DNA of 64,000 bases from Terracidiphilus sp. (GTDB lineage: Bacteria; Acidobacteriota; Terriglobia; Terriglobales; Acidobacteriaceae): positions 9,625-73,624 of the forward strand of contig JBEKPI010000001.1 in assembly GCA_049520855.1 (NCBI GenBank), in the 5' to 3' direction. A model generated the notes under the pieces. That model worked only from the letters and a program-made list of their open reading frames with translations, ran no database searches and was not told the DNA's origin. Made by a program: the position numbers and the translations under genes. The stretch's first letter is position 1; every line of letters starts with the position of its first letter. Shown here piece after piece: positions 26,368 to 60,009 of the stretch.

Positions 26368-28701
26368 CTAACCGAGTCCTTGCAGAGCAGTCCGCGCGTT
26401 CTTTGCATCCGGCGAGTCGGGCGCCAGAGAAATGGCCTTCTTCAAATGAGTTGCGGCATTGACCTTATCCCCCAGTTTGCCGAACACCATTCCCAGGTGA
26501 TACTCCATAGCAGAGCTGTTCGGATCGGTCTTGACCGCGTCTTCCAGAAGATCGCGGGCAAATCCGTAAGTTCCCTTGTAATAGTAAGCCCACGCCAGGG
26601 TGTCCGCGGTGATCGGTGAAGCCGGCATGGCCTTCCGCGCAGTCTGGGCCAGCGTCAAAGCCACATCAACGTTTTCGCCATTCTGAAGCATCATATAGGC
26701 AAGATTGTTGGCTGCAATGGGCTGCGCCGGCTGGATTTGAAGAGCCTTCTTGTAGTAGTCCTCAGCCTTCTGCTTATCGCCAACCGACTCCTCGAGGGTT
26801 CCGAGAATGGCAAAGGCCGTGGCACTGGCGGGATGATCCTTGGACCACAACTGCCATGCGGCGATTGCACTTGCGGCCTGTCCGCGCTGCACCTGAATCT
26901 GCGCGTAGATGGCAACCGCCTCGCCGTCGTCGGGGTTCATCTCTATGGCTTTCTGCGCGGCGCCGGCCGCCTGATCGAAGTTCTTGCTTCGGGCCTGCAA
27001 CTGAGCCAGCATGTCGTAAAATCCGCTGTTCTTCGGACTCTTGGCGATTTGCGCGTTCAGGCGATCCAAGGCCTGGGCCGGTTGCTTGATTGAGAGATCA
27101 TAGCCAATCAGTTCGCGCATGGCGCCAATCGAATTGGGGTCATATTGCAGAGCCTGCTCCAGCAGCGACGTGCCTTCAGGGTATTTCTTTTGCGCGTAGC
27201 GAAGTTGGCCGAGCATCTGATAAGCCTGCGAGCTTGGCGGCGTGGCGCCGATTGCAGTCTTCAGGTCGGCCTCCGCTTTGTCCTGTTCGTTACGCGACAA
27301 CTCCACTGCAGCGCGCCATACATAACCGCTGGGGTAACGAGGCGCGGCGGCAATTGTCTTGTCCGCCACATCGGACAGCAACGTCATATTGCCATGCTGG
27401 CTTGCCATGCGCGCAAGCTCCTCCTCCGCTTCCAATCCGGGCGGATTGAGTTGCGCCGCCTGACGAAGACTCGTTTCGGCCAGACCGCTATCGCCCTTGG
27501 CGAGCGCGGCCTTGCCCAGCCAAAATTGGATGAAAGCGTCCTTCGGGGCATCGTTGGCCGCACCCCGAAGGGCATTGATCGCATCGTCAGGCTTGCCGTT
27601 GTTGAGCAAAACAATTCCGTTCAGCACGGCGACCTGGGGATCCTTGCTATTCTTCTTCATCAGCTCGGAGACAACGCTTTGGGCGGTCCCATAATCCTTG
27701 ACCTGAAGAAGAACACGGACGTATCCCTCCCGCACAGACAGATTCTTGGGATACTGCTGAGAAAGTCTTGCAAACTCCGCCTTGGCCTTGTCGATCTGCC
27801 CCGAGCTATCGTAGTAGTCCGCCAGCAGCCGCACTCCCCGAGGATCGTCCGCGAGATCGTTTGAAGCCTGGCGAAGCACTTCCTCAGCCCTTGCCTGATT
27901 GCCTTGCCTCAAAACAACCTGAGCAAGAGTCTCCCTGGCGCTCAGATTCTTTCGATCCGTAGCGACAGCACTCCAGCATATCTGCTCGGCATCCTGCAAA
28001 CGGCCGCTCTTGATATAGAAAGCGGCGAGCAACAGCTTGGCGTTCACGGATTTTGGCTCGAGTGCGACCGACTTCTTCAATTCGCTCTCAACCATAGAAC
28101 TATTCGCCGGATCGCCCATTTCAAGCAATGCAAGAGTCTCGTGAAGATCCGCCTTGTCGGGGGCGAGTTCCAGCGCGCGATGAATCTCAGTCAGGGCCAG
28201 ATCCTGTTGTCCCCGCCTGGCCGCAATGCGCGAAAGCAACGAGTGAATATCGGCGTTGTTAGGCTGTGCCGCCAATACCGTGGCGGCCTGCGCCTGCGCC
28301 TCGTCGATCTTGCCCCCGGCAAGGAGCAAGTTTCCCAGATCGGTCCGCGCTTTGTAGTTCTCCGGCTGCAGGTACACCGTTCGTTGCAGTTCGCCGTAAG
28401 CGGCGCTCATCGCACCCATATGGAGATAAGTCTGCGACAGGGCGTAATGCGCATCGGCAAAGTTCTTGTCAATCTTCAAGGCGTTGGAAAACTGAATGGC
28501 AGCTTCCCTGTCCTTGCCAAGAGCGCTATACTTCTGGCCGCTTTCCAGATATTTATGCTTTCGGACGTTTGGATCGCGGAAGCATCCGGACAATATGGAA
28601 AGCGACAAAAAGAGAGTAACCACTGCAAGAGCAGCGCGGCCGTTCCGCGATCTCCTACTGCCATCGAAGCCGGATTGAAATGCCTTGAATCTGCTTTCCA
28701 T
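26368..28701 (-). CDS. TPR-repeat lipoprotein (PrsT-like, PEP-CTERM system)
   Basis: Lipobox LSGC after a hydrophobic stretch; many TPR units; C-terminal AANNLAY, ADTLAWAYY, YHLGM. Confidence 0.8.
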   Translation of the reverse strand: MESRFKAFQSGFDGSRRSRNGRAALAVVTLFLSLSILSGCFRDPNVRKHKYLESGQKYSALGKDREAAIQFSNALKIDKNFADAHYALSQTYLHMGAMSAAYGELQRTVYLQPENYKARTDLGNLLLAGGKIDEAQAQAATVLAAQPNNADIHSLLSRIAARRGQQDLALTEIHRALELAPDKADLHETLALLEMGDPANSSMVESELKKSVALEPKSVNAKLLLAAFYIKSGRLQDAEQICWSAVATDRKNLSARETLAQVVLRQGNQARAEEVLRQASNDLADDPRGVRLLADYYDSSGQIDKAKAEFARLSQQYPKNLSVREGYVRVLLQVKDYGTAQSVVSELMKKNSKDPQVAVLNGIVLLNNGKPDDAINALRGAANDAPKDAFIQFWLGKAALAKGDSGLAETSLRQAAQLNPPGLEAEEELARMASQHGNMTLLSDVADKTIAAAPRYPSGYVWRAAVELSRNEQDKAEADLKTAIGATPPSSQAYQMLGQLRYAQKKYPEGTSLLEQALQYDPNSIGAMRELIGYDLSIKQPAQALDRLNAQIAKSPKNSGFYDMLAQLQARSKNFDQAAGAAQKAIEMNPDDGEAVAIYAQIQVQRGQAASAIAAWQLWSKDHPASATAFAILGTLEESVGDKQKAEDYYKKALQIQPAQPIAANNLAYMMLQNGENVDVALTLAQTARKAMPASPITADTLAWAYYYKGTYGFARDLLEDAVKTDPNSSAMEYHLGMVFGKLGDKVNAATHLKKAISLAPDSPDAKNARTALQGLG

Positions 28702-28793
28702 CGTCGTCCATCCTTTCAGCTTGTCACTCGAGCGGCTACCATTTGAAGCCGCTGGCTTAGCCACGCCGCCGTTCCCTGCTCCATTCATGGCGC

Positions 28794-29435
28794 TCAGTCA
28801 GGGACAAATCGCGGCAGCAAGGGCGCAAGTTGCCCGGTGAATGTCTCGGCGCGTTTTCTAGCGGTCTCCACGTCATCGCTTGAAGAGATCGGCGTAATCA
28901 CCCGGACAAGCGCCGCATCCGTTCGATTCAGCCGAATTGCATCAGCGACCATGTATATCTTTGCCATATATTCGTTTGCCACGCTACGCCCGTGCGCCTG
29001 GTACCAGTAGATAACGAACTGCCTCGCATCGCCGTTAGCAATAATGTATTCTCCGACACGGTGGGGCCTGCCATTTACGTCAATCAGATTGACGTATTTA
29101 GAAGACTCAAAGACCCAACCGGCTCCTGGCAAGCAATGCTTAGGAGAATGAATGGTTTGGCCGGTCCTCTGGGTGGGAAAATAGGCGATGAACAGACTGA
29201 TCGGCAATGCCTGTGAGCCTTGGGTATAAATCCGCGAAAGAAAGTCTCCAGCCCCAAGAACATCAAGGGTCTGCTGGTCGAGTTGCTGATCGCTTCCAAT
29301 CCGTCCCGCTATCTCGCTCGGAAACTGCGACAAGGCCTCGCTTGGGGGATTCCGATCGGCATTGGGGCGCGAATGAAGCAGGATCACTGTTCCGGCAAGC
29401 AGCAGGACCGAAGCCCAAAAGCGAAGGTTCTTCAT
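28794..29435 (-). CDS. epsI: EpsI family exosortase-associated protein
   Basis: IHSPKHCLPGAGW, YWYQAHGR, DAALVRV; ATGA overlap with the exosortase. Confidence 0.88.
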   Translation of the reverse strand: MKNLRFWASVLLLAGTVILLHSRPNADRNPPSEALSQFPSEIAGRIGSDQQLDQQTLDVLGAGDFLSRIYTQGSQALPISLFIAYFPTQRTGQTIHSPKHCLPGAGWVFESSKYVNLIDVNGRPHRVGEYIIANGDARQFVIYWYQAHGRSVANEYMAKIYMVADAIRLNRTDAALVRVITPISSSDDVETARKRAETFTGQLAPLLPRFVPD

Positions 29436-30319
29436 GTCTGCCGCCTTTTGACCGGGAATAAACCCATTGTGCGGTGGACGAGATAAAGGCACCCTAGAGA
29501 AACCAAAAAGATGACCCAACCGGAGAACTCATGAAAAAAGCCCAGGGCTTTGTCTGGATCCCAGTACTGGACGCACAATCCGGTGCCGAGAATACGCACC
29601 GCGTTGGCTGCAATCGCGATCGGAATGCTGGCCAGAACGAGCAAGATTCTCCGCAAGACGGACTTTTCCATGAAGTACCCATAAAAGACCGACAGCGTGA
29701 ACAGGCTCATCAAGGAGCGGATGCCGCTGCAGGCCTCTGCCACCTCCAGCTTCATCAAGGGAAGCTGGATGACATTGCCATCCCGCAGAACCGGCACGCC
29801 GAAGAGAGGAAGCAGGTCGCTGGCCAGCTTTGAAGCCAGGATCTGCAGCGGAAAGGTTATCTGGTTAAAGATTATTTCCGGAAGCGGAATCGCCAGCAAC
29901 AAGACCGCCAGGGCGAAGCGCAACTCCTTCAGCAACTGCCATCCGCCGAAGCAAAGCACCAGGCCGGCCAGCAGGATGAGCAGAGAGACACGGGAGAGAA
30001 AGAGCTCGGATCCGTAGACCCCAAGGAGGAGGACGACAAGCGCGAAGGCCATAACGGCAATTCCGCTCCAGGCAGGGGCGATGATCGTCCCGAGAAGGAT
30101 GCTTTTCTTATCCCACACCAAATACGCGGCAAACAGGGGCACCAGGAAGCCGTGAGAGTAATCGGGTATCTGCCACCAGTCGGTAGCCAGTTTCCCCAGC
30201 ACCTGATAATAAACCGCCGCCACCAGCAGGCAGATCGTTGCCGAACCCAATAGAAACTGAGCGTTGGATAAGGGCCAGGAGCCTTGGGGCGCCGCAGAAG
30301 TCTGTATGTCTTGAGCCAT
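29432..30319 (-). CDS. Exosortase (EpsH/XrtA family)
   Basis: DYSHGFLVP, EVAEACSGIRS (catalytic Cys), ANAVRI (Arg), FHEFSGW (His). Confidence 0.93.
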   Translation of the reverse strand: MAQDIQTSAAPQGSWPLSNAQFLLGSATICLLVAAVYYQVLGKLATDWWQIPDYSHGFLVPLFAAYLVWDKKSILLGTIIAPAWSGIAVMAFALVVLLLGVYGSELFLSRVSLLILLAGLVLCFGGWQLLKELRFALAVLLLAIPLPEIIFNQITFPLQILASKLASDLLPLFGVPVLRDGNVIQLPLMKLEVAEACSGIRSLMSLFTLSVFYGYFMEKSVLRRILLVLASIPIAIAANAVRILGTGLCVQYWDPDKALGFFHEFSGWVIFLVSLGCLYLVHRTMGLFPVKRRQT

Positions 30320-30369
30320 TTTCTCCGTGATTGGATCCTCGATGATATCGATTCGCTCTTTCTCATACT

Positions 30370-30385
30370 AGCAATCGGAGTGCCG
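30370..30385 (-). promoter_or_regulatory. sigma54 promoter of the exosortase-epsI-TPR operon
   Basis: Minus strand CGGCACTCCGATTGCT, near consensus, 50 bp upstream of the start codon. Confidence 0.75.
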
Positions 30386-30434
30386 AAAGTGAAAGAATTC
30401 GATTCAGGGGAACTCCCCACGCATCTCCTTTCGT

Positions 30435-30476
30435 TGGGAAACCAACTTCCGGTGGTAGTGGAAAACGCTTTCCACT
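30435..30476. promoter_or_regulatory. Tandem GGAA-N6-TTCC palindromes, candidate activator sites
   Basis: GGAAACCAACTTCC (30437-30450) and AGTGGAAA-ACGC-TTTCCACT (30457-30476), centres 23 bp apart. Confidence 0.5.
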
Positions 30477-30613
30477 TTTCAGGACATTCGATGGCATACT
30501 TTTGCCCAATGGAAGGGAACATATCTGCTTTTCCCTTATCATCTCCCGTAGAGAAACGTCCAAAGGTGCCTATCTTCTACAGATAGCCGCCTTCTAGATC
30601 AGTCCCCCCGGTT

Positions 30614-30629
30614 TGGAACCTGCATTGCT
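30614..30629 (+). promoter_or_regulatory. sigma54 promoter of the rightward EPS export operon
   Basis: TGGAACCTGCATTGCT, 26 bp before ATG 30656. Confidence 0.7.
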
Positions 30630-30655
30630 ATGGAAGGGTGGTACCCTGGCCCCTT

Positions 30656-31573
30656 ATGGGAAGCATAGCAACCATCCACAACGCGAAACGGCAGGCCAAA
30701 CAGAACCCCCCTATTGAGGCGAGGCTGCAGCGTGCGATTTTGCGGATAGCCGAGAGCGAATGTCCGGTCTTGATCTTGGGCGAACATGGCGCCGGGAAGC
30801 GATTCGTTGCCGGACAAATCCATGCACAGTCGTCTCTGTCCCGCTGCGAGTTCAAGGAGATCTGTTGCAGCGATGTCGACGCACAGGCACTACAGGCCGC
30901 TCTTTCTACCCATGGAACCGTCTATCTGGTTGAAATCACCGATCTTAGCCTTTTCATGCAAGAATTCCTCCTCAACACATACTTTCGCTCGGATCAGCCG
31001 CAAACCTGCCGTCTCCTTTGTGGTTCGAGCCGCGAACTTCTGGAGGAAGTCAAGTCGTGGCGGATGAGAGAAGATTTCTTCTACTTTGTCTCAGCCGTTA
31101 CGCTTCGGATTCCCCCACTACGGTATCGGAAGTCCGAGATTCTCTCCATAGCAGATGAGCTTTTGACCCGGTACTCCAAGCAGTTCGACCGCCCCAAGCC
31201 GGTGCTTTGCAAGGAAAGCATCGAACACCTGATGGAGCACGCATGGCCCGGCAATCTGTCGGAACTTGAGACCGCGATCAAGACGTTCGTCGCCATTGGG
31301 GACCAGGCGATTTCTCTCGCCGCGATTAAAGCGGCGTCGCCATCGGGGAGGTCAAATGGGAGCCGCCGGCATATGCTCTTGAAGGAAGCCACGCGGGCCT
31401 CATCGATCCAGATCGAACGCCAGCTGATCTCCGAGGTTCTGGTTTCGACCGGCGGCAACCGGAAACGCGCCGCTGTCGACCTTGGCATCAGCTACAAGGC
31501 CCTGCTGTACAAACTGAAGCAGATCGAAACGGAAAACCAATCCGTGTCCTCGAAGAATGGAGTCGCAGTATGA
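30656..31573 (+). CDS. Degenerate sigma54-activator-like protein (AAA+ remnant plus Fis-type HTH)
   Basis: GEHGAGK Walker A kept; GAFTGA loop absent; Walker B YLVE; EDFFYFVS; WPGNLSEL; HTH NRKRAAVDLGISYKALLYKL. Confidence 0.8.
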   Translation: MGSIATIHNAKRQAKQNPPIEARLQRAILRIAESECPVLILGEHGAGKRFVAGQIHAQSSLSRCEFKEICCSDVDAQALQAALSTHGTVYLVEITDLSLFMQEFLLNTYFRSDQPQTCRLLCGSSRELLEEVKSWRMREDFFYFVSAVTLRIPPLRYRKSEILSIADELLTRYSKQFDRPKPVLCKESIEHLMEHAWPGNLSELETAIKTFVAIGDQAISLAAIKAASPSGRSNGSRRHMLLKEATRASSIQIERQLISEVLVSTGGNRKRAAVDLGISYKALLYKLKQIETENQSVSSKNGVAV

Positions 31574-32217
31574 AACCAAGAAGCCTCTTCATTGTGGCAC
31601 TACTTGCTCCAGCGCTCTTCTGCCACGCTCAAGACAAGGCGCCCGCCAATCAGCCGGCTGCACAAAGCACGGTCAAACCGGCTTCGGCGGGCACATCCAC
31701 GCCGGCCGCGCAGGACGCGGGCAAGCCGGCTCTGGCGGAAAGCTATGTCATCGGCGCGTCCGATGTTCTTGCGATCACTGTATTCAAAGAGCCTACCCTG
31801 TCGGGCAGCCTTCTTGTCCGGCCTGACGGCATGATCTCGATGCCGCTTCTCGGCGATGTCGAAGCCTCCGGCAAGACGCCCCTGCAATTGGCAGAGGAAG
31901 TTACGACCAAGCTGAAGAAGTACATACAGGATCCTAATGTCTCTGTCGTGCTGAGTCAGATCAACAGCAAGAAAGTTTTCCTGATTGGCGAAATCGCCAA
32001 GACGGGACCTGTGGACTTGACTCCCGGTATGACCTTGTTAGAGGCAATTGCCGCCGGCGGCGGGCTGACGCAATTCGCCAACTCGAGGAAGATGTACATT
32101 CTGCGCAACGAAAGCGGCAATCATCTGAAGATTCCCTTGCAATACAAGCAAGCACTGGATGGCTATGACGCCTTCAATCTCACTCTGAAACCGGGCGATA
32201 CGATTGTCGTTCCGTAG
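31570..32217 (+). CDS. Polysaccharide export protein (Wza/EpsE-like, SLBB)
   Basis: YVIGASDVLAITVF, VRPDGMISMPLLGDV, LKPGDTIVVP; signal peptide. Confidence 0.9.
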   Translation: MKPRSLFIVALLAPALFCHAQDKAPANQPAAQSTVKPASAGTSTPAAQDAGKPALAESYVIGASDVLAITVFKEPTLSGSLLVRPDGMISMPLLGDVEASGKTPLQLAEEVTTKLKKYIQDPNVSVVLSQINSKKVFLIGEIAKTGPVDLTPGMTLLEAIAAGGGLTQFANSRKMYILRNESGNHLKIPLQYKQALDGYDAFNLTLKPGDTIVVP

Positions 32218-32227
32218 GGCTGGCCAA

Positions 32228-33460
32228 ATGAAACCGAGTTACACGCTCCTGGCAATGCTCTTCGCCGTCAGTGCCGCGGCAAGAGCGCAGGTTGAACCCG
32301 CGGCGACCGACGCAGCAGCGCTGCTGGCCGGCGGCACATTGCACTACGATCTGCGCTATTCGCAAACCGCACAGTTCTACGGCGGGCCCGAGGGCGACTT
32401 GCAGCGGAGCGTCGTGTCCGGAGAGGTGGCCTATTCAGGTTCCAAGGAAGCCCTCCCGTTCAATTTGACCTATTCAGGCGGCGATATGTGGACCATTTCC
32501 GGCACGTCCGAGGGATCTGGGGTGTTTCAGCATCTCTTGGTATCGCAAGGCTTTCTTAGGCGCAAGTGGTCGTTCACCGTCAGCGACAATGTGAGCTATC
32601 TTCCGCAGGCGGCGACGACGGGATTCTCGGGAATTCCTGGAGTGGGAATTCTGCCTGGATCGCCCGGCGAGCCGACTCAGCCGATCCTGACGCTGAACAC
32701 GCGGAGCATCAACAACGCAGTGAGCCCGGATTTCACCTATAACCTGGACTACGCAACCAAGGTCAGCATCGGCGGCAGCTACGGAATTCTGCGATTCCCG
32801 GACGGCAACGGCCTGGAAGTCGATTCGATGCAGGTGGCCCCACAAGTCGAAAGGCGACTGGACGCACTCAACTCGCTTACGGGTCAATACGTCTTTTCCC
32901 GCTTTACCTATACTCAATTTGCGTTCGCCATGGAAACTCAATCCGCGCTTTTCGGCTACCAGCGCACTTGGAGCCGGCGGTTCAAGACGACCTTCGCCCT
33001 CGGGCCGGAGTGGGTCCGCAGTTCCGACAGCGCGGCAATTCCCTCATCGACTCATCTCACAGCGAATGCGAATGCCAGCTACGAGGCCAGGTCGACGACG
33101 GTCACGCTTTCCTACTCACAAGCATCCACTGGGGGCGCGGGGGTGACTACGGAGCCCGGAACGCACATCCAGGATGTCAACGGGGCGTTCTCGCGGCAGT
33201 TCGGAAGGAATCTGACGATAACCGCTACCGGCACGTACATGCGCACACAGGGATTGCTAAACGGTGGTTCCATCAACGGAGTGTTTGGCGGTGTGGCGGC
33301 AACGCGCCAGCTCGGCCGGTACATCTCCGTATTCGCGAACTACACGGCAATCAAACAGTCGTCGAGCGCCGCGCTTCCAACGAATGCCATCAGTGGATTA
33401 TCGCAGGTGGCCGCTTTCGGAGTCGGTTACTCTCCGCGCGAAATTCACCTCAAGAAGTAA
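32228..33460 (+). CDS. Putative outer-membrane beta-barrel protein of the EPS locus
   Basis: Signal peptide, alternating Ser/Thr/Tyr/Gly beta-strand pattern, position after the export gene. Confidence 0.6.
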   Translation: MKPSYTLLAMLFAVSAAARAQVEPAATDAAALLAGGTLHYDLRYSQTAQFYGGPEGDLQRSVVSGEVAYSGSKEALPFNLTYSGGDMWTISGTSEGSGVFQHLLVSQGFLRRKWSFTVSDNVSYLPQAATTGFSGIPGVGILPGSPGEPTQPILTLNTRSINNAVSPDFTYNLDYATKVSIGGSYGILRFPDGNGLEVDSMQVAPQVERRLDALNSLTGQYVFSRFTYTQFAFAMETQSALFGYQRTWSRRFKTTFALGPEWVRSSDSAAIPSSTHLTANANASYEARSTTVTLSYSQASTGGAGVTTEPGTHIQDVNGAFSRQFGRNLTITATGTYMRTQGLLNGGSINGVFGGVAATRQLGRYISVFANYTAIKQSSSAALPTNAISGLSQVAAFGVGYSPREIHLKK

Positions 33461-33476
33461 CTAATCAAGGAGGCCT

Positions 33477-35021
33477 ATGCTCGGGCATCGGGAACTGACA
33501 ATGCAGGACTACGCAGGGATGTTGAAGCGGCGATTCCGGCTGATTTTAGCTTCCACGGTTCTGCTCCTGGGGATCGGTTTCGGAATCACATTCATCATCC
33601 CCCCGCAGTACACCTCGCAGACGCTGGTGCTCATCGAGCAGCAAAAGGTTCCCGAGGACTATGTCAAACCCGTTGTCGATGAAGATCTGGGCGCGCGTTT
33701 GGCGTCGATGAAGGAACAGATCATGAGCCGCTCGCGCATACAACCGATCATCGAGCGATTTGGCCTGTACCCCGGCGGCAAATACACAATGGACGACCGC
33801 ATCCAGTTGACGCAGAAGGCGATTGGGATCAACCCGATCCGCTCGGACCAGTCCCATGGGATGCCAGGCTTTTTTATCTCGTTCAAGGCGCAGGACGCGC
33901 ATACTGCCCAGCAGGTGTGCGGCGAGATCACATCGCTCTTTGTCAGCGCGAATCTCACTGCGCGCGAGGATTCGGCAGAAGGCACGACCGACTTCTTGAA
34001 GCAGCAGCTTGAGGACTCAAAAAGAAACCTCGACGAACAGGACGCAAAACTTGCCGCCTTTGAGCAAAGGAATATCGGCAAGCTTCCGGGGCAGACACTT
34101 CATCTCGGGGACATGGCCCTTGCCATGGGCAGCCCAAACGAAAGTACGCTTCAGGCGCTCACCTCCCAGCTGGACGCGACGACCCAGGCGCTGAATCGCT
34201 TACAAGAAAACGATACCCTTCTTAAAGCTGTGATTTCCCAGCAGACGCAGGTTTCATCAAGCGTGGACCCGGCCTCGGGGACATCCGAGGATGCCCTGAA
34301 AACCGAGCTCAAGGATGCACTCCAGCAGCAACAGCAATTGGAAACTCAGTACACGCCGGATTATCCGGACGTGGTTGCCATCAAGCGCAAGATTGCCGGC
34401 CTGCGGGCAGAGATCGCTCACGCTTCGGTCGAACCCGTGAAGGGATCGGCCCCGGTCAGTAATCACGACTCGGTGCAGCTTCTGGAACTCAAAGCCCGGC
34501 TTCACGCGGGGAGTGAGGCCATGACCGAAGCCAAGCAGAAACAGGCTCAACTCGAACAGCAGATTCGCAGCTACGAGGCGAAGATCGAGGCCAGCCCCCT
34601 GGTCGAGGAAGAGTACAAGCAGGTCACCCGCGATCATGAGACGGCTTTGCAGTTCTACAACACTCTGCTGACCAAGATGAATGAATCGTCCATGGCAACC
34701 GCTCTGGAACACCGCCAGCAGGGCGAACAGTTCCGCGTAATGGACGCTCCAAACCTCCCGGACGAGCCCACCTTCCCGAACCGTCTCATATTCTCCGGTG
34801 GCGGCTTAGCATCCGGCCTTATTCTGGGCCTGCTTCTTGCCGCGTTGCTGGAGTATCGCGATACTTCCGTGCGCAACGAGAGGGACATTTGGGCTTTTAC
34901 CAAGCTGCCGACGCTGGCCGTCGTCTCCTACATCGCCGATTTAGGCGCCCCCCGCGAAGCCCGAAAGCGCGGGAGACTCTTCTCTCGATTCACAAAACCC
35001 ATTGAAAGCGCGCGCGGATAA
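33477..35021 (+). CDS. Polysaccharide chain-length determinant / co-polymerase (Wzc N-terminal-like)
   Basis: Two TM segments flanking coiled coils; YTPDYPDV; EQFRVMDAPNLPDEP. Confidence 0.88.
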   Translation: MLGHRELTMQDYAGMLKRRFRLILASTVLLLGIGFGITFIIPPQYTSQTLVLIEQQKVPEDYVKPVVDEDLGARLASMKEQIMSRSRIQPIIERFGLYPGGKYTMDDRIQLTQKAIGINPIRSDQSHGMPGFFISFKAQDAHTAQQVCGEITSLFVSANLTAREDSAEGTTDFLKQQLEDSKRNLDEQDAKLAAFEQRNIGKLPGQTLHLGDMALAMGSPNESTLQALTSQLDATTQALNRLQENDTLLKAVISQQTQVSSSVDPASGTSEDALKTELKDALQQQQQLETQYTPDYPDVVAIKRKIAGLRAEIAHASVEPVKGSAPVSNHDSVQLLELKARLHAGSEAMTEAKQKQAQLEQQIRSYEAKIEASPLVEEEYKQVTRDHETALQFYNTLLTKMNESSMATALEHRQQGEQFRVMDAPNLPDEPTFPNRLIFSGGGLASGLILGLLLAALLEYRDTSVRNERDIWAFTKLPTLAVVSYIADLGAPREARKRGRLFSRFTKPIESARG

Positions 35022-35023
35022 CT

Positions 35024-35956
35024 ATGTACAGATCCTTTTTTGGCCTTCGCGCCCTTCCTTTCGGAGCCAGTCCAGATCCGCGGTTTCTCTTTCTGAGGCC
35101 GCAGATCAGAGAGGCGCTTGCCTGCCTGCAATACGGCATCGCGGCGCGCAAGGGATTTGTGGTAATGACGGGAGAGGTAGGAACAGGAAAGACGACCCTT
35201 CTTAAGACCGTCCTGGGCACCTTCGCCAAGGGACGCATTGCGACGGCCTTCGTCTTCAATCCTCGGCTCGATGTACTCGATTTTTTTGAGTTCGTGCTCA
35301 CGGACTTTGGCATTCCGCCCAAGACGCGGACCAAGTCGGGCATGCTGTTGCAGTTGAATAGCTGGCTCATCGAGCGCTATCGAGCTCAGCAGTTGACCGC
35401 CATCGTGGTCGATGAAGCGCAGAATCTCTCCTGGGAACTTCTCGAAGAGATTCGCTTGCTGACCAATCTCGAAACCTCATCCGAGAGGCTGGTGCAGATT
35501 GTCCTTTCAGGCCAGCCCGAGCTCGAGGAGAGACTTCACCACCCCAGCGTTCGCCAGCTTCGCCAGCGCATTTCTCTGTGGTGCAAGACGCAGCCGTTGA
35601 GCGCCGAAGAGACGCAGGCCTACATTGCCGAGAGATTGCGCATCGCCGGAGCAAGCCAGCCGGTTCTGCTGCCCGAAGCGGCCGAGCTTGTCCATTTCTA
35701 CTCGAAAGGCATTCCCCGCATCGTCAATCTGATATGCGAACATGCCTTGATCAGCGCTTATGCGGAACAGATCAGGCCGATTCCAGCGTATATCGTTGAG
35801 TCGGTCGGCCTGGAACTCGACCTCGTCCAGCATCCTTTCACAATCTCGCCATCGGCTATGCAGGGTTTAATGGAGCGTAATCGTCATGCAAACGTGCCCG
35901 ACGCCGCTTCCTCCACCATCGAGCACGCCGATTCACTGAAGGAACGTGAAATATGA
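35024..35956 (+). CDS. ExeA-like AAA ATPase (PEP-CTERM locus type)
   Basis: GEVGTGKTT, VVDEAQNL, LSGQPEL, GIPRIVNLICEHAL. Confidence 0.88.
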   Translation: MYRSFFGLRALPFGASPDPRFLFLRPQIREALACLQYGIAARKGFVVMTGEVGTGKTTLLKTVLGTFAKGRIATAFVFNPRLDVLDFFEFVLTDFGIPPKTRTKSGMLLQLNSWLIERYRAQQLTAIVVDEAQNLSWELLEEIRLLTNLETSSERLVQIVLSGQPELEERLHHPSVRQLRQRISLWCKTQPLSAEETQAYIAERLRIAGASQPVLLPEAAELVHFYSKGIPRIVNLICEHALISAYAEQIRPIPAYIVESVGLELDLVQHPFTISPSAMQGLMERNRHANVPDAASSTIEHADSLKEREI

Positions 35957-39466: not shown

Positions 39467-39511
39467 AGTTCTTGCGATAATGCGGATCGACGAGAGGAGC
39501 ATCACGCCGTC

Positions 39512-50311: not shown

Positions 50312-51733
50312 ATGAGGGTTTTGCTGGCTGACCCGCCTCAGCGCGAGAGCGATTACGATGCCGCCTACCCCAACATGGGGATTCTTTACTTGATAGGCAG
50401 CGCGAGACAGCGTTTTTCTGGTTCCGGCATCAGCATTGAATACCTGGAAAGCCAGTATGACCTTGCAGGGCACCTGGAAGCCATAGCGCGCATCCAACCG
50501 GACCTCTATGGACTGTCCTACGCTTCTTTCACTTCCCCGCTCGCTCACCGGACAATTGCAGCCGTGCGCGAGCGATTTCCGGGGCTTCCAATTATTGCCG
50601 GCGGCGCGCATCCAACGGCCGCTTGGGAACAAGTGATCCGAGAGACCGCTGTCGATGTCTGTGTTATTGGAGAAGGCGAAGATGTCTTCTGCGATGTTGT
50701 GGCCCACTTTGCCGGCCAGGGCAAGGCCCTGGAGGATATTCTGGGCATCGCCTTCCGCCGCGAGGGCGCTCCCTTCCGCACCGCGAAACGTCCGCCCATC
50801 AAGAATTTGGATACCATCCCGTCTCCGGCGTGGGATCTCATCGATTTTGCCAAGTACAAAGGGATGCACCTGCATCAAGCTGAGCCACAGACCTATGTCG
50901 TGGTGAGCCGCGGCTGCCCGTTCGATTGCGGCTTCTGTTCCAATCCAATCTGGAAAGAGAGCAAGCCGTGGGTTCGGCTCCGCGGGGCGCAATCGGTTGC
51001 CGAAGAGGTCGAGCAGTTGTACCAGCGGGGCATCCGCGAGGTCTACCTGAGCGCCGACGAATTCAACGTGAATCTCGATTGGCCGATCAAAGTCGCGCGG
51101 GCACTTCAGAGTCTCGGGCACAGCGACCTGCATTTTCAATGCAATGTTCGCGCCGACAAGGTCAACGAGGAATTGGCGTGTGAGTTTCGCAAGATGAACC
51201 TCTGGATGGTCCATATCGGCGTGGAAAGCGGAAACCAGCGCACCATAGACGGCCTCAAGAAGCGCATCGAACTCGATCAAGTGGTCAACGCCTGCCAGAT
51301 CTTTCAGGCTCAAGGCATTAAGGTATTCGGCTTCCTTATGCTCTATCATGCATGGGAAGAGGAGGGGCAGCTTGCCTTTGAGACCCCGGCCGAAGTGAAT
51401 AAGACCTTTGAATTCGCGCGGCGCCTGTTGCGCGCGGGATTGATCAACTATATGTCATGGCAAGTGGCGACGCCGTATCCTGGATCTCGTCTTTGGGGGA
51501 CCGCCCAAAAGTTTGGCCTGCTCTGCGACTCCCACCGCTTCGGCGACGTGCGGGAAAAGGCTATGAATCTGCCCGGCGTTTCCGAGCGGGATATTCGCCG
51601 CTCATTGCGCAAAGGCTACGTGATAAAGACTTGGTATGCTATCAAGTCAGGCCACATAAGTTGGAGGCATTTGACCCGCGCCCGCCAGGTCTTGGCAATC
51701 ATGCTCAACCAGGACTGGCTAAAGGCCAAGTGA
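50312..51733 (+). CDS. B12-binding radical SAM protein (class B methyltransferase-like)
   Basis: GGAHPT cobalamin-domain motif; SRGCPFDCGFC (CxxxCxxC); GVESGNQ; ATPYPGS. Confidence 0.9.
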   Translation: MRVLLADPPQRESDYDAAYPNMGILYLIGSARQRFSGSGISIEYLESQYDLAGHLEAIARIQPDLYGLSYASFTSPLAHRTIAAVRERFPGLPIIAGGAHPTAAWEQVIRETAVDVCVIGEGEDVFCDVVAHFAGQGKALEDILGIAFRREGAPFRTAKRPPIKNLDTIPSPAWDLIDFAKYKGMHLHQAEPQTYVVVSRGCPFDCGFCSNPIWKESKPWVRLRGAQSVAEEVEQLYQRGIREVYLSADEFNVNLDWPIKVARALQSLGHSDLHFQCNVRADKVNEELACEFRKMNLWMVHIGVESGNQRTIDGLKKRIELDQVVNACQIFQAQGIKVFGFLMLYHAWEEEGQLAFETPAEVNKTFEFARRLLRAGLINYMSWQVATPYPGSRLWGTAQKFGLLCDSHRFGDVREKAMNLPGVSERDIRRSLRKGYVIKTWYAIKSGHISWRHLTRARQVLAIMLNQDWLKAK

Positions 51734-52972: not shown

Positions 52973-53002
52973 CCTGCCGCAGAACCGTCCGGAAGGCTGC
53001 CC

Positions 53003-53608: not shown

Positions 53609-53769
53609 ATCGACTCTCCAGTCCACATTGCATACCGGGCGCCCTGCAAGCCGCTCTTTACTCCCGCGCCAGCGGCAAGGACTGATGGTTGTATCATGGA
53701 CCATGTGCCGGCAAGAGGAATCAATCGGATCATAGCTTTGATCCATGTTTTGTTGGGAAAGAAGGCCAG

Positions 53770-55883: not shown

Positions 55884-55922
55884 TTGTCGGGGATTATCGA
55901 AGTACGGCCCGGCGAAGCCGCT

Positions 55923-57044
55923 TCAATGCGGCTTTCTCCCGGTCAACGCCGGCTTGATCTCTTTGGGTTTCGTTGCGGCCTGCATATGGATATGCCTTGA
56001 GGCCGAATTCCTTGCCTTGTGCGGTGTTTCCAATGCTCCGCCGGCTTGCGAGTCTTGCAGCTTATAGAGCAGCGACCTATAGCTGATGTTGAGCCATTTG
56101 GCAGTCTTCCGGCGGCTCCAGCTATTCGCCTCCAGCACCTTCAGTATGATCTGCCGCTCCAAATCCTGCGTGGCGGCCTTGGTAATCTCCTTCAGCGAAA
56201 CGGGGCTGGCCAGATCGATTTTGGTATTCAGCCCGGCCGAACTCGTCCGGACAGTCGAAACCAGATCCGCCGCCAAGGACTCTTCGCTGCCGATCAGAAT
56301 ATAGCTGCGAATCATGTTTTCCAGTTGCCGTATGTTTCCAGGCCAGTCGTACCGCTGCATCAAGCGCGTCACCTCGCGCGAAAGCGGCTTCGGAGCGCGG
56401 TGAAATGCCTTCGCATGTCGATCAATGAAGTAGTCGATCAACATGGGCAGATCAACGGCCCGCTGGCGCAAGGGCGGCAATTCGATGGTCACGGCGTTGA
56501 TACGGAAAAAGAAATCCAGCCGAAAGCCTCCATCCTCGGCTTGCTGCCGCAGGTTGTCGCTGGCCGCGCTGACCAGCCGGGTATTGACCTTTCTCGATTC
56601 CTGTCCGCCGACACGCATAAAGCTGCCATCCTGAAGCATCTGCAGCAGCTTGGCCTGAACCGACATATCCAGGTCGCCAATCTCATCGAGAAACAGGGTC
56701 CCCATGTGCGCCAGTTCGACACGGCCGCGCTTGGTTGCATAGGCTCCGGTAAAAGCCCCTTTTTCATAACCGAAGAGTTCCGACTCGATCAGCGAGTGCG
56801 GAATCGCGGGGCATGCCACCTTGACCCATGCGCCCTTCGAGCGGTTGGAGTAAGCATGAAGCAGTTTTGCAAAAATCTCCTTGCCCGTTCCGCTCTCGCC
56901 CTGTAGCAGCACCGGAACCGTCGTCGCGGCAACCCGCTCCAGCTTTTCCCGAGCAACGGCCATCAGGGCTGTTTGGCCGAAGACCACCTCCATCGGAGGA
57001 AGATCGCGGGTATCGGCTGATTCGGTTGCGCGCGCCAGAGGCAT
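55923..57044 (-). CDS. sigma54 activator lacking an N-terminal sensory domain
   Basis: GESGTGKE, ESELFGYEKGAFTGA, FLDEIG, FFRIN, WPGNIRQL, HTH ISYRSLLYK; ATG 57044 preferred (track start 57074). Confidence 0.88.
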   Translation of the reverse strand: MPLARATESADTRDLPPMEVVFGQTALMAVAREKLERVAATTVPVLLQGESGTGKEIFAKLLHAYSNRSKGAWVKVACPAIPHSLIESELFGYEKGAFTGAYATKRGRVELAHMGTLFLDEIGDLDMSVQAKLLQMLQDGSFMRVGGQESRKVNTRLVSAASDNLRQQAEDGGFRLDFFFRINAVTIELPPLRQRAVDLPMLIDYFIDRHAKAFHRAPKPLSREVTRLMQRYDWPGNIRQLENMIRSYILIGSEESLAADLVSTVRTSSAGLNTKIDLASPVSLKEITKAATQDLERQIILKVLEANSWSRRKTAKWLNISYRSLLYKLQDSQAGGALETPHKARNSASRHIHMQAATKPKEIKPALTGRKPH

Positions 57045-57083
57045 AGTCAATCCAAAATTCAAGATTCGATTCACATTCCTGTA

Positions 57084-57099
57084 GGCAACTTTCCGGCCA
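57084..57099 (-). promoter_or_regulatory. Possible sigma54 promoter of the sensor-less bEBP
   Basis: Minus strand TGGCCGGAAAGTTGCC, correct GG-N10-GC spacing. Confidence 0.5.
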
Positions 57100-57245
57100 A
57101 ACTCAAACGGTCGGATAGTAACCAGCGTGATATACTTTAGTAACCTTTTTTCTGCTCAATGGTAATCTAGCGCATGGTTTCAGAGCGCTCTCGATCCGCT
57201 TTTGTTCAAGAGTGTGTAATTTTTTGCGCATCATAGCGAATGAAT

Positions 57246-57263
57246 TACCACTTTTGAGTGGTA
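57246..57263. promoter_or_regulatory. Palindrome between the divergent bEBP genes
   Basis: TACCAC-TTTTGA-GTGGTA. Confidence 0.4.
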
Positions 57264-57432
57264 CTATAAGGAATAGGCAGCATAGTTTTGCATCCCCCGG
57301 GGTCCGCGGAAGTTGTTCTTGACTCCTCTGCAAATCACAGCTTAAGGATAGTCCAAACATCTTCGTCCTGGCCATCAGGAGAGGAATGAAATCCCCCCTT
57401 TGCACGGTTTTGAATGAAGGGAAAAGTCTGCG

Positions 57433-58899
57433 ATGGCGAGCATTTCATTGGGAGCGTCAATGAAGACGAAGAGTAAGCGCAGCCTTCTCATTGCAGCTCT
57501 TGACCCAGATACTGCAATCCTCAATTATCTTCACCGCAGTCTTGCCGACCGTTTCAGCGTGAGCCTGTTTACCGAGGCCGCCGATCTGATACGAAGCCTG
57601 AGAGAATCTCAGGCGCCTGACCTGCTCCTGATGGACTGGCACCTTGCCGAGAATGGTTCCGGAGAGAACTCGCTCGGCATGCTGATGAAACTACGCGCTT
57701 CCAACCCAACGCTTCCGATCATTATGCTTGCCTGTTCAGCCGAGTTGAAGGATGTGGTGACGGCAACGCGCTTGGGCGCCACGGACGTGATTCTCAAGCC
57801 TTTTAGAAAGAGCGACATCGATCAGGCTGTTCAGGAGTGCCTCAAGGATGCGGGCAAGCAGTTGGACGACGACGATGAGATCAAAGAGATCCCCCTTGAT
57901 GAGAACACATCGTTTGTCAGAGCCTGCAAGCGCATGAGCGAGATCGAATCCCAGTGCAGGCTTGTGGCGCGCGCCGATATTCCTGTTCTCATTCTTGGAG
58001 AGAGCGGAACGGGCAAGGAAGTTGCGACCTTGTTCATCCACAAGATGTCGGCCCGCAGCCAGCGCAGCTTCATGAAGGTAAATTGCGCGGCGATGCCTGC
58101 CGATCTGCTGGAAAGCGAGCTTTTTGGCTATGAGCCAGGCGCGTTTACCGGAGCGATCAAATCCAAGCCGGGTAAATTTGAGATTTGCAACAATGGCACA
58201 ATCTTCCTGGATGAGATTGGCGAGATGCCGGCCGTATTGCAGGCAAAGCTGCTCCAGGTTCTCCAGGATGGGAGCTTTTCGAGGCTGGGCAGCCGGACCA
58301 GCGTGAAAGTCGATGTCCGGGTGATTGCCGCAACCAATATCGACATCAAGGCGGCTATTGCGCAAAAGACCTTTAGAGAGGATCTTTATTACCGTCTCAA
58401 TGGCTTCACGCTGAAGATGCCCCCGCTGCGCGAGCGCACCGAGGAGATTCCGATCCTGGCCCGCCACTTTATGCGCAAGGTGGCCGCGAAATACGAGCGC
58501 GATCCCCTGACGATTTCGCCAAAGCTGATGAAGGCTCTCAGCAGCTATTTATGGCCCGGCAATCTTCGCGAATTGGAGAATACGATCAAGCGCTACCTCA
58601 TCTTGACCGACGAACAGGCGATCATAGACGAACTGATTCCCCGGCAAAGCGAGGAGTCGACGGTCTCTGGCGTGGAAGACACAAACGGCAACGGAAGTCT
58701 GAAGCATCTCGTCCGAAACTTGAAGGGCGGCGCTGAGTCTGCCGCCATCGCTAGAACGCTGGAGGCTACTGGATGGAACCGCAAGGCAGCGGCAGGCGAC
58801 CTGCAGATAAGCTACAAAGCGTTGTTGTACAAGATCAAACAGTACAACCTCGCTCCGCCGCAGAAGCAATCCAATTCGATCCCGAGGCGCAACGCATGA
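57433..58899 (+). CDS. sigma54-dependent response regulator (REC-AAA+-HTH, NtrC/PrsR-like)
   Basis: LLLMDWHL receiver Asp, LKPF; GESGTGKE, GAFTGA, FLDEIG, FREDLYYRL, WPGNLREL; HTH ISYKALLYK. Confidence 0.92.
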   Translation: MASISLGASMKTKSKRSLLIAALDPDTAILNYLHRSLADRFSVSLFTEAADLIRSLRESQAPDLLLMDWHLAENGSGENSLGMLMKLRASNPTLPIIMLACSAELKDVVTATRLGATDVILKPFRKSDIDQAVQECLKDAGKQLDDDDEIKEIPLDENTSFVRACKRMSEIESQCRLVARADIPVLILGESGTGKEVATLFIHKMSARSQRSFMKVNCAAMPADLLESELFGYEPGAFTGAIKSKPGKFEICNNGTIFLDEIGEMPAVLQAKLLQVLQDGSFSRLGSRTSVKVDVRVIAATNIDIKAAIAQKTFREDLYYRLNGFTLKMPPLRERTEEIPILARHFMRKVAAKYERDPLTISPKLMKALSSYLWPGNLRELENTIKRYLILTDEQAIIDELIPRQSEESTVSGVEDTNGNGSLKHLVRNLKGGAESAAIARTLEATGWNRKAAAGDLQISYKALLYKIKQYNLAPPQKQSNSIPRRNA

Positions 58900-59378
58900 T
58901 TCCACCCGCGGGTGGCCGCAATTCCTCCAAGTCGGAGAAGGTGGTGATCCAGTTCGGCTCGAGGACGGTCAAGGGGTACCTCGACTCTCCGGTTTGGAAC
59001 ACTGTGGAAGAACTGTTGAGCAACGCTCCGCACAGCGCGCCTGAGATCTTCCGGGTTCGCCTTCTCGATTCGGATACAGTCGAGGATATATTAACCAAAG
59101 ATATCAAGGCGGTCTTCTATGTAAACAGCTTTGAGGGAGACCCTCATCATCAGATTCTCAATTTTCATTCCCGCGCGCCCATCGTGCATGGGATCTGGAT
59201 GCGGGTGCAGTTTCTCGATGGCGAAGTCATGGAGGGAATCGTGTGCAACTCCATCCGCTATCTCGTCGATCCAGGCTTCTTCCTGGTGCCCACCGATCCT
59301 GACAGCAATAACAGGCTTATTTACGTGCTGAAGAGTTGGCTTGCCGATCATCGCGTCCTCGGGATGCGCAAACTCTAG
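58896..59378 (+). CDS. Hypothetical protein (DUF6982-like)
   Basis: VQFLDGEVMEG, GFFLVPTDPDSNN; ATGA overlap with the response regulator. Family label is from recall. Confidence 0.65.
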   Translation: MIPPAGGRNSSKSEKVVIQFGSRTVKGYLDSPVWNTVEELLSNAPHSAPEIFRVRLLDSDTVEDILTKDIKAVFYVNSFEGDPHHQILNFHSRAPIVHGIWMRVQFLDGEVMEGIVCNSIRYLVDPGFFLVPTDPDSNNRLIYVLKSWLADHRVLGMRKL

Positions 59379-59719
59379 TCGCAGACAGCCGCGCTCTCCT
59401 CAAACGAATAATGCAGAATCTCCGCGGCTATCCCCGTCAATTGCCCTGACGCCCTCTCCGTGCGAACTACCCTTCCCTCGCATCGAATAAAACAGCCAGT
59501 TGAAAGAGTAATCTCCGGAGGCAATTCGACAACAAACTCAAAATTGCCGCCGAGAGGGGCGTTGTCGGCCAGGTCAAGATAGAAATACACTCCCCGGTTG
59601 CTCAAGTCCCGAGTAAAGCCTGGAATCTCGCTCTGCCCCTTGATCACAGTAAGAGCCGCGTTAATCCCAAAGCGCTGCCCTACTCGCTGGACGCGTTCCG
59701 ATTGCAGGTTGCGAATCAT
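59375..59719 (-). CDS. Stand-alone PilZ-domain (c-di-GMP-binding) protein
   Basis: RVGQR (RxxxR) and DLSNRG (D/NxSxxG); GGAAGGA Shine-Dalgarno before ATG 59719. Confidence 0.85.
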   Translation of the reverse strand: MIRNLQSERVQRVGQRFGINAALTVIKGQSEIPGFTRDLSNRGVYFYLDLADNAPLGGNFEFVVELPPEITLSTGCFIRCEGRVVRTERASGQLTGIAAEILHYSFEESAAVCD

Positions 59720-59927
59720 GAGGTCCTTCCTTGCGAACGAAAACAGCAAATTGCGCAGATTGCAAGATTGTGCCTCCATGGCGACATGAAAGCGCTGCGC
59801 ATTGCCGGCTCCGCGCCCGCACCTCTCAGACTGCTCGGCAAGAGGCGCAGCACCAGCGAAGCTGTGGTACGAAGGTATCGCAAATTCCGGTTACCGCAGT
59901 CCCGCACCTTCGGTACTTATGTGTTAG

Positions 59928-59943
59928 AGCAATCTCAATGCCG
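59928..59943 (-). promoter_or_regulatory. sigma54 promoter of the PilZ gene
   Basis: Minus strand CGGCATTGAGATTGCT; shares CGGCAY-N3-GATTGCT with the exosortase promoter. Confidence 0.7.
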
Positions 59944-59991
59944 AATGAATTGTCTGTAAATGTTGAGGTTACGGGCTCGCCTCGACGGAAC

Positions 59992-60009
59992 TATGCAATC
60001 AATTGCGCA
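59992..60009. promoter_or_regulatory. Candidate bEBP upstream activating sequence
   Basis: TATGCAA-TCAA-TTGCGCA; 13/18 identical (promoter orientation) to 7995-8012 and also 48 bp from its -24 element. Confidence 0.6.

Follow-up and report, generated by a model that had tools for sequence, protein, structure and literature searches.

How is an exosortase-linked exopolysaccharide (EPS) locus controlled in a bacterium in which neither PrsK nor PrsR is found? The question is raised by a 64,000-nucleotide stretch of DNA (called the window below) from a Terracidiphilus-like member of the Acidobacteriaceae, positions C1:9625-73624 of a genome of 3.8 Mb (306 contigs, completeness 91%). The public loci nearest to it come from Terracidiphilus sp. 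and from metagenome-assembled genomes of Acidobacteriaceae, of peat and soil origin. PrsK, PrsR, and PrsT had been described as restricted to Proteobacteria, and further PEP-CTERM regulators elsewhere were predicted, yet to be found (Haft et al. 2006, PMC1569441). The window encodes three bacterial enhancer-binding proteins (bEBPs), here named bEBP1, bEBP2, and bEBP3, together with a PilZ-domain protein and a DUF6982 protein. The answer that we favor, with moderate confidence, is that a sigma-54 circuit of three activators would take the place of PrsK/PrsR, with bEBP3 as its input, bEBP2 as its amplifier, and bEBP1 as a limiting component. This regulatory set appears to be specific to the Acidobacteriaceae.

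A PEP-CTERM/XrtA locus without PrsK and PrsR

By gene content, the locus belongs to the PEP-CTERM/XrtA EPS system. Our gene map is based on NCBIfam and Pfam profile scans of the open reading frames (ORFs) of the window, and these recovered in place every hallmark gene that an earlier note on this DNA had listed: the exosortase, EpsI, a tetratricopeptide repeat (TPR) lipoprotein, an ExeA-like ATPase, a co-polymerase, a kinase, and a priming transferase. The exosortase operon, on the minus strand, runs xrt, epsI, prsT (Table 1). The exosortase falls slightly below the cut-off of the XrtA-specific model TIGR03109 (206 versus 208). Twelve PEP-CTERM substrates were found in the genome as TIGR02595 matches over the cut-off, one of them inside the window (8305-8961).

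The same note had reported that PrsK is not encoded in the window, and this can be extended to the genome. No histidine kinase of any type was found among the scanned window ORFs, and nothing in the 91%-complete genome exceeds the cut-off for PrsK (TIGR02916), the top match reaching 113 bits against 300 and covering the generic kinase core only. Likewise, no protein in the genome exceeds the cut-off of 502.6 bits for PrsR (TIGR02915); the bEBPs score 332 to 387, with the top score on contig C9, and bEBP3, at 332, is for that reason not PrsR. The rpoN gene was found in the genome. Since PrsT occurs here without PrsK and PrsR, the phylogenetic profile described in 2006 is broken.

A 1038-amino-acid kinase on contig C9 (8347-12295, minus strand) was considered as the missing kinase of bEBP3 and rejected, as it falls far below the PrsK cut-off and forms its own pair with an adjoining bEBP. 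It does show a weak match (24 bits) to the N-terminal region of PrsK, and its neighbor is the bEBP with the best PrsR score in the genome (387); the two may be a distant PrsK/PrsR-like pair that is unrelated to the locus.

Three paralogous bEBPs, one of a family that lacks the GAFTGA loop

All three bEBPs that had been noted earlier, with the recognition helices ISYKALLYK, ISYKALLYK, and ISYRSLLYK, are present at their places. The only revision concerns the start of bEBP2, for which ATG 57044 (373 amino acids), inferred from conservation, is likelier than the former call of 57074. Helices of the type ISY[KR]xLLYK occur in only 3 of the 13 bEBP-like genes of the genome, and in a tree the three proteins form a clade with support of 97/97, which together justify the term paralogues. 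In the alignment, bEBP2 and bEBP3 have GAFTGA, Walker A and B, the arginine fingers, and sensor II all intact. bEBP2 has no N-terminal domain and consists of the AAA+ and helix-turn-helix (HTH) domains only.

Aligned with its paralogues, bEBP1 has a deletion of about 21 amino acids over the L1/GAFTGA loop, and its Walker B Asp is changed to Val, the second arginine finger to Phe, and the sensor II Arg to Ser, with the P-loop kept. About 25 residues precede the AAA+ core, with no N-terminal sensory domain, and PF00158 gives fragmentary matches only (57 bits). GAFTGA is essential for contact with sigma-54, and homologues of enhancer-binding proteins that are without it (TyrR, DhaR, HupR, and VpsR) bypass sigma-54 (PMC3162934). 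Because the loop is missing, bEBP1 cannot be a classical activator, and by its residues it appears to be a homologue of the sigma-54 activators, not a functional member of them.

The conservation of bEBP1 marks it as one of a family and not a decayed gene. Its close homologues are all 305 amino acids long and share 73 to 91% identity, and an exhaustive search of 50%-identity representatives yielded about 110 clusters, whose proteins are about 300 amino acids long and match over their full length. A GAFTGA-like motif is absent in 131 of the best 150 matches. In a 92-member alignment of the family, the T-G-A columns are gapped in 91 sequences, the P-loop GExGxGK is kept in 84 to 90, and the Walker B Asp is present in 33. 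No NCBIfam model names the family. We surveyed one genome per genus in 121 genera of Acidobacteriaceae and found a bEBP1 match in 28 genomes and an exosortase in 69. In 24 of the 28 genera having bEBP1, the bEBP1 and exosortase genes are arranged head-to-head at a distance of less than 1.1 kb. No bEBP1 orthologues were found outside the Acidobacteriaceae in a phylum-wide sample.

The recognition helix of bEBP1 reads ISYKALLYKL in 10 of 10 genera compared. That of bEBP3 reads ISYKALLYKI in 15 of 16 genera and ISYKAMLNKV in the remaining one (G198), and that of bEBP2 reads ISYR[AS]L[LM]YK in all 15 genera from which the helix was recovered. The degenerate bEBP1 carries the helix of the receiver-domain protein bEBP3, not that of the sensor-less bEBP2, and this is the strongest argument from the sequences that bEBP1 would act at activator sites.

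Conserved sigma-54 promoters and candidate enhancers

Both strands of the window were scanned with a weighted GG-N10-GC pattern (maximum 15). Only five sites score at least 13.5, and two of them lie, correctly oriented, in the 336-bp spacer between the exosortase and bEBP1 genes. These two promoters and the palindrome at 30458 that stands between them are kept in 12 close relatives. Among 20 distant genera, an element of the type TGGCA-N6-CGTGCT precedes the bEBP1-family gene at the matching position in 17. A repeat of the type GGGAAA-N4-TTTCCC occurs in 15 of 21 spacers (that of the window and those of 14 of the 20 genera); in spacers that gave both elements, it precedes the -24 by 122 to 180 nt. 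The sorting operon (xrt-epsI-prsT) and the export operon would be read from these back-to-back sigma-54 promoters, with the palindrome as their common candidate enhancer. Elsewhere in the genome, the palindrome has a sole near-copy with one mismatch, GAGGAAAACGATTTCCAC, at C25:2594-2611.

The earlier note had given four to five sigma-54 promoters: four are in the region, all conserved in relatives, and a fifth candidate is outside it, at 8061-8076 (plus strand). Besides the bEBP2 promoter, the bEBP2/bEBP3 spacer has an operator block composed of GTGTAA-TTTT-TTGCGC (57214-57229) and the palindrome TACCACT-N4-AGTGGTA (57246-57263), of which the genome has no other copy. That palindrome, upstream of bEBP2, is overlapped by a GG-N10-GC element of high conservation, TGGTAATTCATTCGCT, at 57235-57250 (minus strand), which may be either an additional, weak sigma-54 promoter or no more than a part of the operator. 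A 100-amino-acid ORF at 57103-57405 (minus strand) was set aside; it is probably not a gene, because it has no family match and overlaps the conserved promoter and operator blocks. An equivalent promoter, TTTGGCCCC-N-AGGTGC, stands upstream of the pair PilZ-bEBP2 in eight other genera (type A layout, see below), and its conservation suggests that the sigma-54 dependence of the sensor-less bEBP2 is ancestral.

The candidate enhancers have a common 6-N4-6 geometry with a central AA-N4-TT and come in two half-site flavors, GGAAA and TGCAA. The geometry is common to the promoters of xrt, bEBP1, bEBP2, and pilZ (P_xrt, P_bEBP1, P_bEBP2, and P_pilZ) and to that of one PEP-CTERM gene, at 8305-8961. 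This gene is 52 kb off, and its upstream activator sequence (UAS) is identical to that of the pilZ promoter in half-site type and in the 50-nt spacing. The promoter region of the PEP-CTERM gene is not syntenic in the three relative genomes compared. A PrsR-like regulon spanning all PEP-CTERM genes is unsupported, as the 12 genes gave no more than modest -24/-12 candidates; only the PEP-CTERM gene in the window has the pilZ-type architecture. On another contig (C33:1790-3104, minus strand), two tandem PEP-CTERM paralogues have a common upstream element, TGG(C/A)CCATCACGTGC(A/C), with GG-N10-GC spacing, and they are possible further targets of sigma-54.

These promoters also bear on the strongest competitor of our reading, which is that bEBP1 works as a sigma-70-type factor in the manner of VpsR, TyrR, DhaR, and HupR, using its AAA+ domain for nucleotide- or ligand-dependent oligomerization and acting at other promoters, such as those of the glycosyltransferase block. 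The characterized GAFTGA-less homologues of enhancer-binding proteins all act with sigma-70 (PMC3162934; VpsR, PMC6158489). Like them, bEBP1 is an AAA+/Fis-type HTH protein without a functional GAFTGA loop, and like VpsR it is found in a polysaccharide/biofilm locus; VpsR was also among the Protein Data Bank (PDB) sequence matches when bEBP3 was the query. The strongly conserved P-loop suggests that binding of a nucleotide or ligand still matters, and the biosynthetic genes at 40 to 55 kb, being without -24/-12 sites, need some other control. Even so, we regard this alternative as rather unlikely. bEBP1, unlike VpsR, TyrR, DhaR, and HupR, has no receiver or other N-terminal sensory domain, and its Walker B, arginine finger, and sensor II are degenerate. 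In all genera examined its helix is the same as in bEBP3, a true activator, and paralogues that are true activators with this helix lie in the same locus. The bEBP1 gene itself stands directly behind a sigma-54 promoter and beside the shared candidate enhancer, a textbook arrangement for feedback.

The bEBP2/bEBP3 cassette, its kinase, and its PilZ and DUF6982 partners

Genes of the bEBP2 type were found in 89 of the 121 genera and genes of the bEBP3 type in 80, nearly always as divergent neighbors. When a bEBP2-type gene and an XrtA-like exosortase gene were on the same contig, they were no more than 30 kb apart in 19 of 28 cases. Comparing synteny had been suggested earlier, and with the head-to-head arrangement of bEBP1 and the exosortase (24 of the 28 genera that have bEBP1), the proximity of bEBP2, and the conserved promoters, the proposed connection of the locus and its bEBPs with sigma-54 is strengthened.

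The layout of the cassette was mapped in 16 genera in addition to the window. In type A (eight genera), bEBP3 and a soluble HisKA/HATPase kinase of 310 to 323 amino acids, in the order [bEBP3 <- kinase], diverge from [PilZ -> bEBP2]. Type B (two genera) has the kinase and PilZ of type A plus DUF6982 after bEBP3, and in one of these genera (G246) PilZ is on the kinase/bEBP3 strand. In type C (six genera and the window), [DUF6982 <- bEBP3] diverges from [bEBP2], without the kinase and without PilZ upstream of bEBP2. A dedicated soluble histidine kinase thus lies beside bEBP3, apparently co-transcribed with it, in 10 of the 16 genera, and a PilZ gene lies directly upstream of bEBP2 on the same strand in 9 of the 16 and on the kinase/bEBP3 strand in a tenth. 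In G243, a type A genus, a 663-amino-acid PAS-PAS-HisKA-HATPase-REC hybrid kinase (C3, 5716-7707, plus strand) follows the kinase-bEBP3 operon and could be an extra sensory input.

A search for an unlinked cognate kinase, another suggestion of the earlier note, revealed no orthologue of this soluble kinase in the window genome. The kinases of two genera share 78% identity, compared with 28 to 31% for the best match here, which argues that the missing kinase is a derived loss and not the ground state. In the receiver of bEBP3, the two acidic residues (DPD), the phospho-acceptor Asp, and the Lys are all conserved, with Ala at the equivalent of T87; given the phospho-acceptor Asp, an outside phosphodonor or other partner, for example a DUF6982 paralogue, is still to be expected. 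The earlier description of a self-contained activator/amplifier/damper circuit is therefore plausible in its three-tier anatomy, with a receiver (REC) domain in bEBP3, a sensor-less bEBP2, and a GAFTGA-less bEBP1, and unsupported in the term "self-contained," because the loss of the kinase is derived and the phospho-acceptor is kept.

The PilZ protein that had been reported is indeed present, with canonical motifs that conform to RxxxR and (D/N)xSxxG and a sigma-54 promoter of its own, and the position of its gene after DUF6982 is kept in relatives. The input of cyclic di-GMP (c-di-GMP) that had been proposed with it is suggested by association only, that is, by the PilZ motifs, the sigma-54 promoter, and the location of PilZ beside bEBP2 in relatives. 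The post-Walker-A RN motif of the FleQ-type c-di-GMP site is absent from all three bEBPs in the alignment, and we therefore do not propose direct binding of c-di-GMP of the FleQ kind.

The tandem bEBP3-DUF6982 occurs in at least 15 genera, mostly kinase-less ones, and the DUF6982 copy there is divergent. DUF6982 was matched in 115 of the 121 genomes, and most of these have a high-scoring copy away from bEBP3; in the window genome, only the bEBP3-linked paralogue was seen, which may reflect the 9% incompleteness or real loss. An AlphaFold2 (AF2) model of DUF6982 (modest quality, pLDDT 66; two small beta-barrels) gave no significant PDB match with Foldseek; the best (E = 0.009, TM about 0.25) was to tandem Tudor/KOW-like barrels, and MrkH and YcgR appeared at non-significant scores.

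The distribution of the cassette speaks to a second alternative, in which bEBP1 is an obligatory positive partner that forms mixed hexamers with bEBP2, in the style of HrpR/HrpS, as the active species. HrpR and HrpS are a precedent for co-dependent sensor-less bEBPs, bEBP1 and bEBP2 are both sensor-less paralogues, and bEBP2-type genes are often found 3 to 27 kb from bEBP1 and the exosortase. However, HrpR and HrpS keep GAFTGA and the catalytic residues, and bEBP1 is without the loop, the Walker B Asp, one arginine finger, and the sensor II Arg. Moreover, bEBP2-type genes are present in 89 genera and bEBP1-type genes in about 27, from which it follows that bEBP2 would work without bEBP1 in most genera, and we consider a co-activator role of bEBP1 improbable. 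Least probable of all is an incidental co-location, in which the bEBP2/bEBP3/PilZ cassette serves another trait and regulation of the EPS locus is independent of it: bEBP2-type (89) and bEBP3-type (80) genes do occur in more genera than the exosortase (69), and about one-third of the same-contig cases are more than 30 kb from it, but 19 of 28 within 30 kb is far over chance for genomes of 4 to 5 Mb, the cassette and the exosortase-linked bEBP1 have in common a helix type that is unique in the genome, the 6-N4-6 geometry extends across both sets of promoters to the PEP-CTERM gene, and in G243 the gene immediately downstream of bEBP2 encodes a PEP-CTERM protein. This gene (C3, 343-927, minus strand) ties the cassette to exosortase substrates.

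The proposed circuit

The gene content, the states of the motifs, the conserved promoters and palindromes, and the conserved gene linkage are observed, and the three-activator circuit is built on them. Its input stage would be bEBP3, driven by a kinase in most of the genera sampled and coupled to DUF6982 here instead. The cascade or amplifier stage would be bEBP2, which is sensor-less and would be made from its own sigma-54 promoter. PilZ, which stands directly ahead of bEBP2 in most of the genera sampled, would here be a separate, sigma-54-driven gene. bEBP1 would make no contact with sigma-54 and has probably lost ATP hydrolysis, with the P-loop and the bEBP3 helix kept. Its place at the head of the export operon, which would be induced, makes it most likely that bEBP1 restrains or modulates activation, and it might do so either through competition at the enhancer or through entry into activator hexamers, which it would poison. 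The order of the cascade, the assignment of proteins to sites, the negative role of bEBP1, and the sensing of c-di-GMP through PilZ are all inferred from the sequences. A more specific version has a built-in anti-activator, with bEBP1 as a dominant-negative, ATPase-dead protein that bears the helix of the activator and would shut down the enhancer, PilZ serving the sensor-less bEBP2 in trans by sensing c-di-GMP for it, and DUF6982 replacing the lost kinase as the partner of the receiver; we offer this combination as a tentative possibility.

Several observations weigh against the circuit. The exosortase-side promoter was detected in just 7 of the 20 distant genera. The half-sites of the enhancers differ between promoters (GGAAA versus TGCAA), and matching them to the ISYK and ISYR helices is a guess. 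The GG-N10-GC scan found no sigma-54-like promoter in the glycosyltransferase block (40 to 55 kb), and only part of the locus would accordingly be sigma-54 dependent. Strong -24/-12 sites are also missing at PEP-CTERM genes elsewhere in the genome, where the scan of 12 gave modest candidates only. In the tree, bEBP1 groups weakly with bEBP2 (89/79) and is on a long branch. With a genome 91% complete, a kinase could sit on a missing contig. Finally, contigs of a peat metatranscriptome match epsI, xrt, bEBP1, and the export genes, one of them spanning 30919-31129 in bEBP1; as evidence of in situ expression these matches are weak, and the contigs could contain DNA carry-over.

Comparison with known systems

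The locus has much in common with the PEP-CTERM/XrtA system that is controlled by PrsK-PrsR-PrsT: the exosortase, EpsI, PrsT, the TIGR03013 transferase, the chain-length/ATPase/Tyr-kinase set, and the PEP-CTERM proteins, as well as sigma-54 promoters with upstream activator sites and an NtrC-type response-regulator bEBP. It differs in that the kinase of the acidobacterial relatives is a soluble HisKA/HATPase protein of 310 to 323 amino acids and not the membrane protein PrsK, in the two extra paralogues, one sensor-less and one without GAFTGA, and in the predicted sigma-54 targets, which here would be the regulators themselves along with the two operons for exosortase and export, not mainly single PEP-CTERM genes.

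With PspF/PspA and HrpR-HrpS/HrpV, bEBP2 shares an architecture of AAA+ and HTH only, and a gene for a small protein, PilZ, lies directly upstream in 9 of 16 genera. Unlike those systems, the neighbor is a PilZ-domain protein and not an inhibitor of the PspA or HrpV type, and bEBP2 itself is predicted to be sigma-54 dependent. FleQ and BerB are bEBPs that bind c-di-GMP directly and link it to EPS genes (PMC5552954, PMC10723142). The conceptual link of c-di-GMP, a bEBP, RpoN, and exopolysaccharide expression is similar here; the difference is that the only recognizable c-di-GMP module is the separate PilZ protein.

Other genes of the locus

Behind bEBP1, the first gene of the export operon overlaps the bEBP1 stop codon (ATGA, 31570-31573). 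The operon encodes, in order, a Wza-like exporter, a putative outer membrane protein, a chain-length determinant, an ExeA-like ATPase, a tyrosine autokinase, the TIGR03013 priming transferase (426 bits against a cut-off of 393), a family 2 glycosyltransferase (GT2), and a hypothetical protein. The matches to the export, chain-length, ATPase, and Tyr-kinase models have strong E-values, yet are under the equivalog cut-offs. The biosynthetic block that follows (40.7 to 55.9 kb) encodes an FAD oxidoreductase, GT4 glycosyltransferases, Wzy, an acyltransferase, WecB, a B12-radical SAM enzyme, DUF218, and GFO and SDR enzymes. The B12-binding radical SAM enzyme (50312-51733, plus strand) sits among the glycosyltransferases of the EPS cluster, which suggests an unusual sugar modification, for example methylation.

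On the other side of the exosortase operon, a single 944-amino-acid ORF (23412-26246, minus strand) combines a Wzx-like polysaccharide flippase region with a class I methyltransferase domain at the C-terminus, both on weak Pfam matches. Another fusion, at 21678-23360 (minus strand), joins an ATP-grasp domain and a Wzb-like low-molecular-weight phosphotyrosine phosphatase, likely the one that partners the Tyr autokinase encoded at 35953-36861.

Table 1. Positions of genes, promoters, and candidate enhancers in the window
Feature	Position	Strand	Evidence or remark
UAS TGCAA-CGCA-TTGCA, outside the region	7997-8010	+	50 nt ahead of -24/-12
Fifth candidate -24/-12, TGGTATGGAACGTGCA, outside the region	8061-8076	+	Precedes PEP-CTERM gene
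PEP-CTERM protein gene	8305-8961	+	TIGR02595 match at C-terminus
PrsT-type TPR lipoprotein, last gene of exosortase operon	26368-28788	-	TIGR02917, 326.8 bits (cut-off 312.2)
EpsI family protein	28794-29519	-	TIGR02914, 119.6 bits (cut-off 42.8)
Exosortase, XrtA-like	29432-30319	-	TIGR02602, 199.5 bits (cut-off 105.55)
Sigma-54 -24/-12 promoter of exosortase operon, CGGCACTCCGATTGCT	30370-30385	-	Score 13.5/15; start codon 51 nt downstream
Candidate enhancer (UAS) palindrome GTGGAAA-ACGC-TTTCCAC, between both divergent promoters	30458-30475	.	One copy in 3.8-Mb genome
Sigma-54 promoter of bEBP1/export operon, TGGAACCTGCATTGCT	30614-30629	+	Score 13.5
bEBP1, AAA+/HTH_8, helix ISYKALLYK	30656-31573	+	Motif alignment, 305 amino acids
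EPS export/assembly operon behind bEBP1	31570-40540	+	NCBIfam matches
bEBP2, sensor-less AAA+/HTH, helix ISYRSLLYK	55923-57044	-	PF00158, 205 bits
Sigma-54 promoter of bEBP2, TGGCCGGAAAGTTGCC	57084-57099	-	Conserved in 6 relatives
Conserved operator block, bEBP2/bEBP3 spacer	57214-57263	.	Invariant across 7 relatives
bEBP3, REC-AAA+-HTH, helix ISYKALLYK	57433-58899	+	PF00072, PF00158 (222 bits), PF02954
DUF6982 paralogue, translationally coupled to bEBP3	58896-59378	+	PF22478, 122 bits; ATGA overlap with bEBP3 stop
PilZ-domain protein, 134 amino acids, RVGQR and DLSNRG motifs	59375-59779	-	PF07238, 32.9 bits (cut-off 22.5)
Sigma-54 promoter of pilZ, CGGCATTGAGATTGCT	59928-59943	-	Conserved in all 4 aligned genomes
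Candidate UAS palindrome TGCAA-TCAA-TTGCG	59994-60007	.	50 nt from pilZ -24/-12; conserved in all 4 aligned genomes

Implications

Acidobacteria are among the most abundant bacteria of soil and peat, and the exopolysaccharides that they make are important for the aggregation of soil and the retention of carbon. Our literature search found no paper on the regulation of acidobacterial exosortases. The general themes are already known, namely, sigma-54 control of PEP-CTERM and floc genes, as in the RpoN-dependent PEP-CTERM/floc formation of Zoogloea and Aquincola (PMC9850573), and control of EPS by bEBPs and c-di-GMP, as with FleQ, BerB (PMC5552954), and VpsR. What appears to be new is the conserved pairing of an exosortase with a bEBP that has no GAFTGA loop and is encoded behind a sigma-54 promoter, the unit of PilZ and a sensor-less bEBP, and the exchange of a kinase for DUF6982.

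For the Acidobacteriaceae, a conserved set of candidate regulators is now defined, consisting of the kinase-bEBP3/PilZ-bEBP2 cassette and the GAFTGA-less bEBP1 head-to-head with the exosortase. The concrete promoters and enhancer motifs make RpoN dependence, the input of c-di-GMP, and the role of the degenerate activator directly testable. If bEBP1 does act as a natural decoy or poison bEBP, it would interest those who study sigma-54 in general and those who design synthetic circuits. An anti-activator together with the PilZ and DUF6982 swaps would, if true, represent a new design principle of sigma-54 circuits and a new route from c-di-GMP to sigma-54 transcription.

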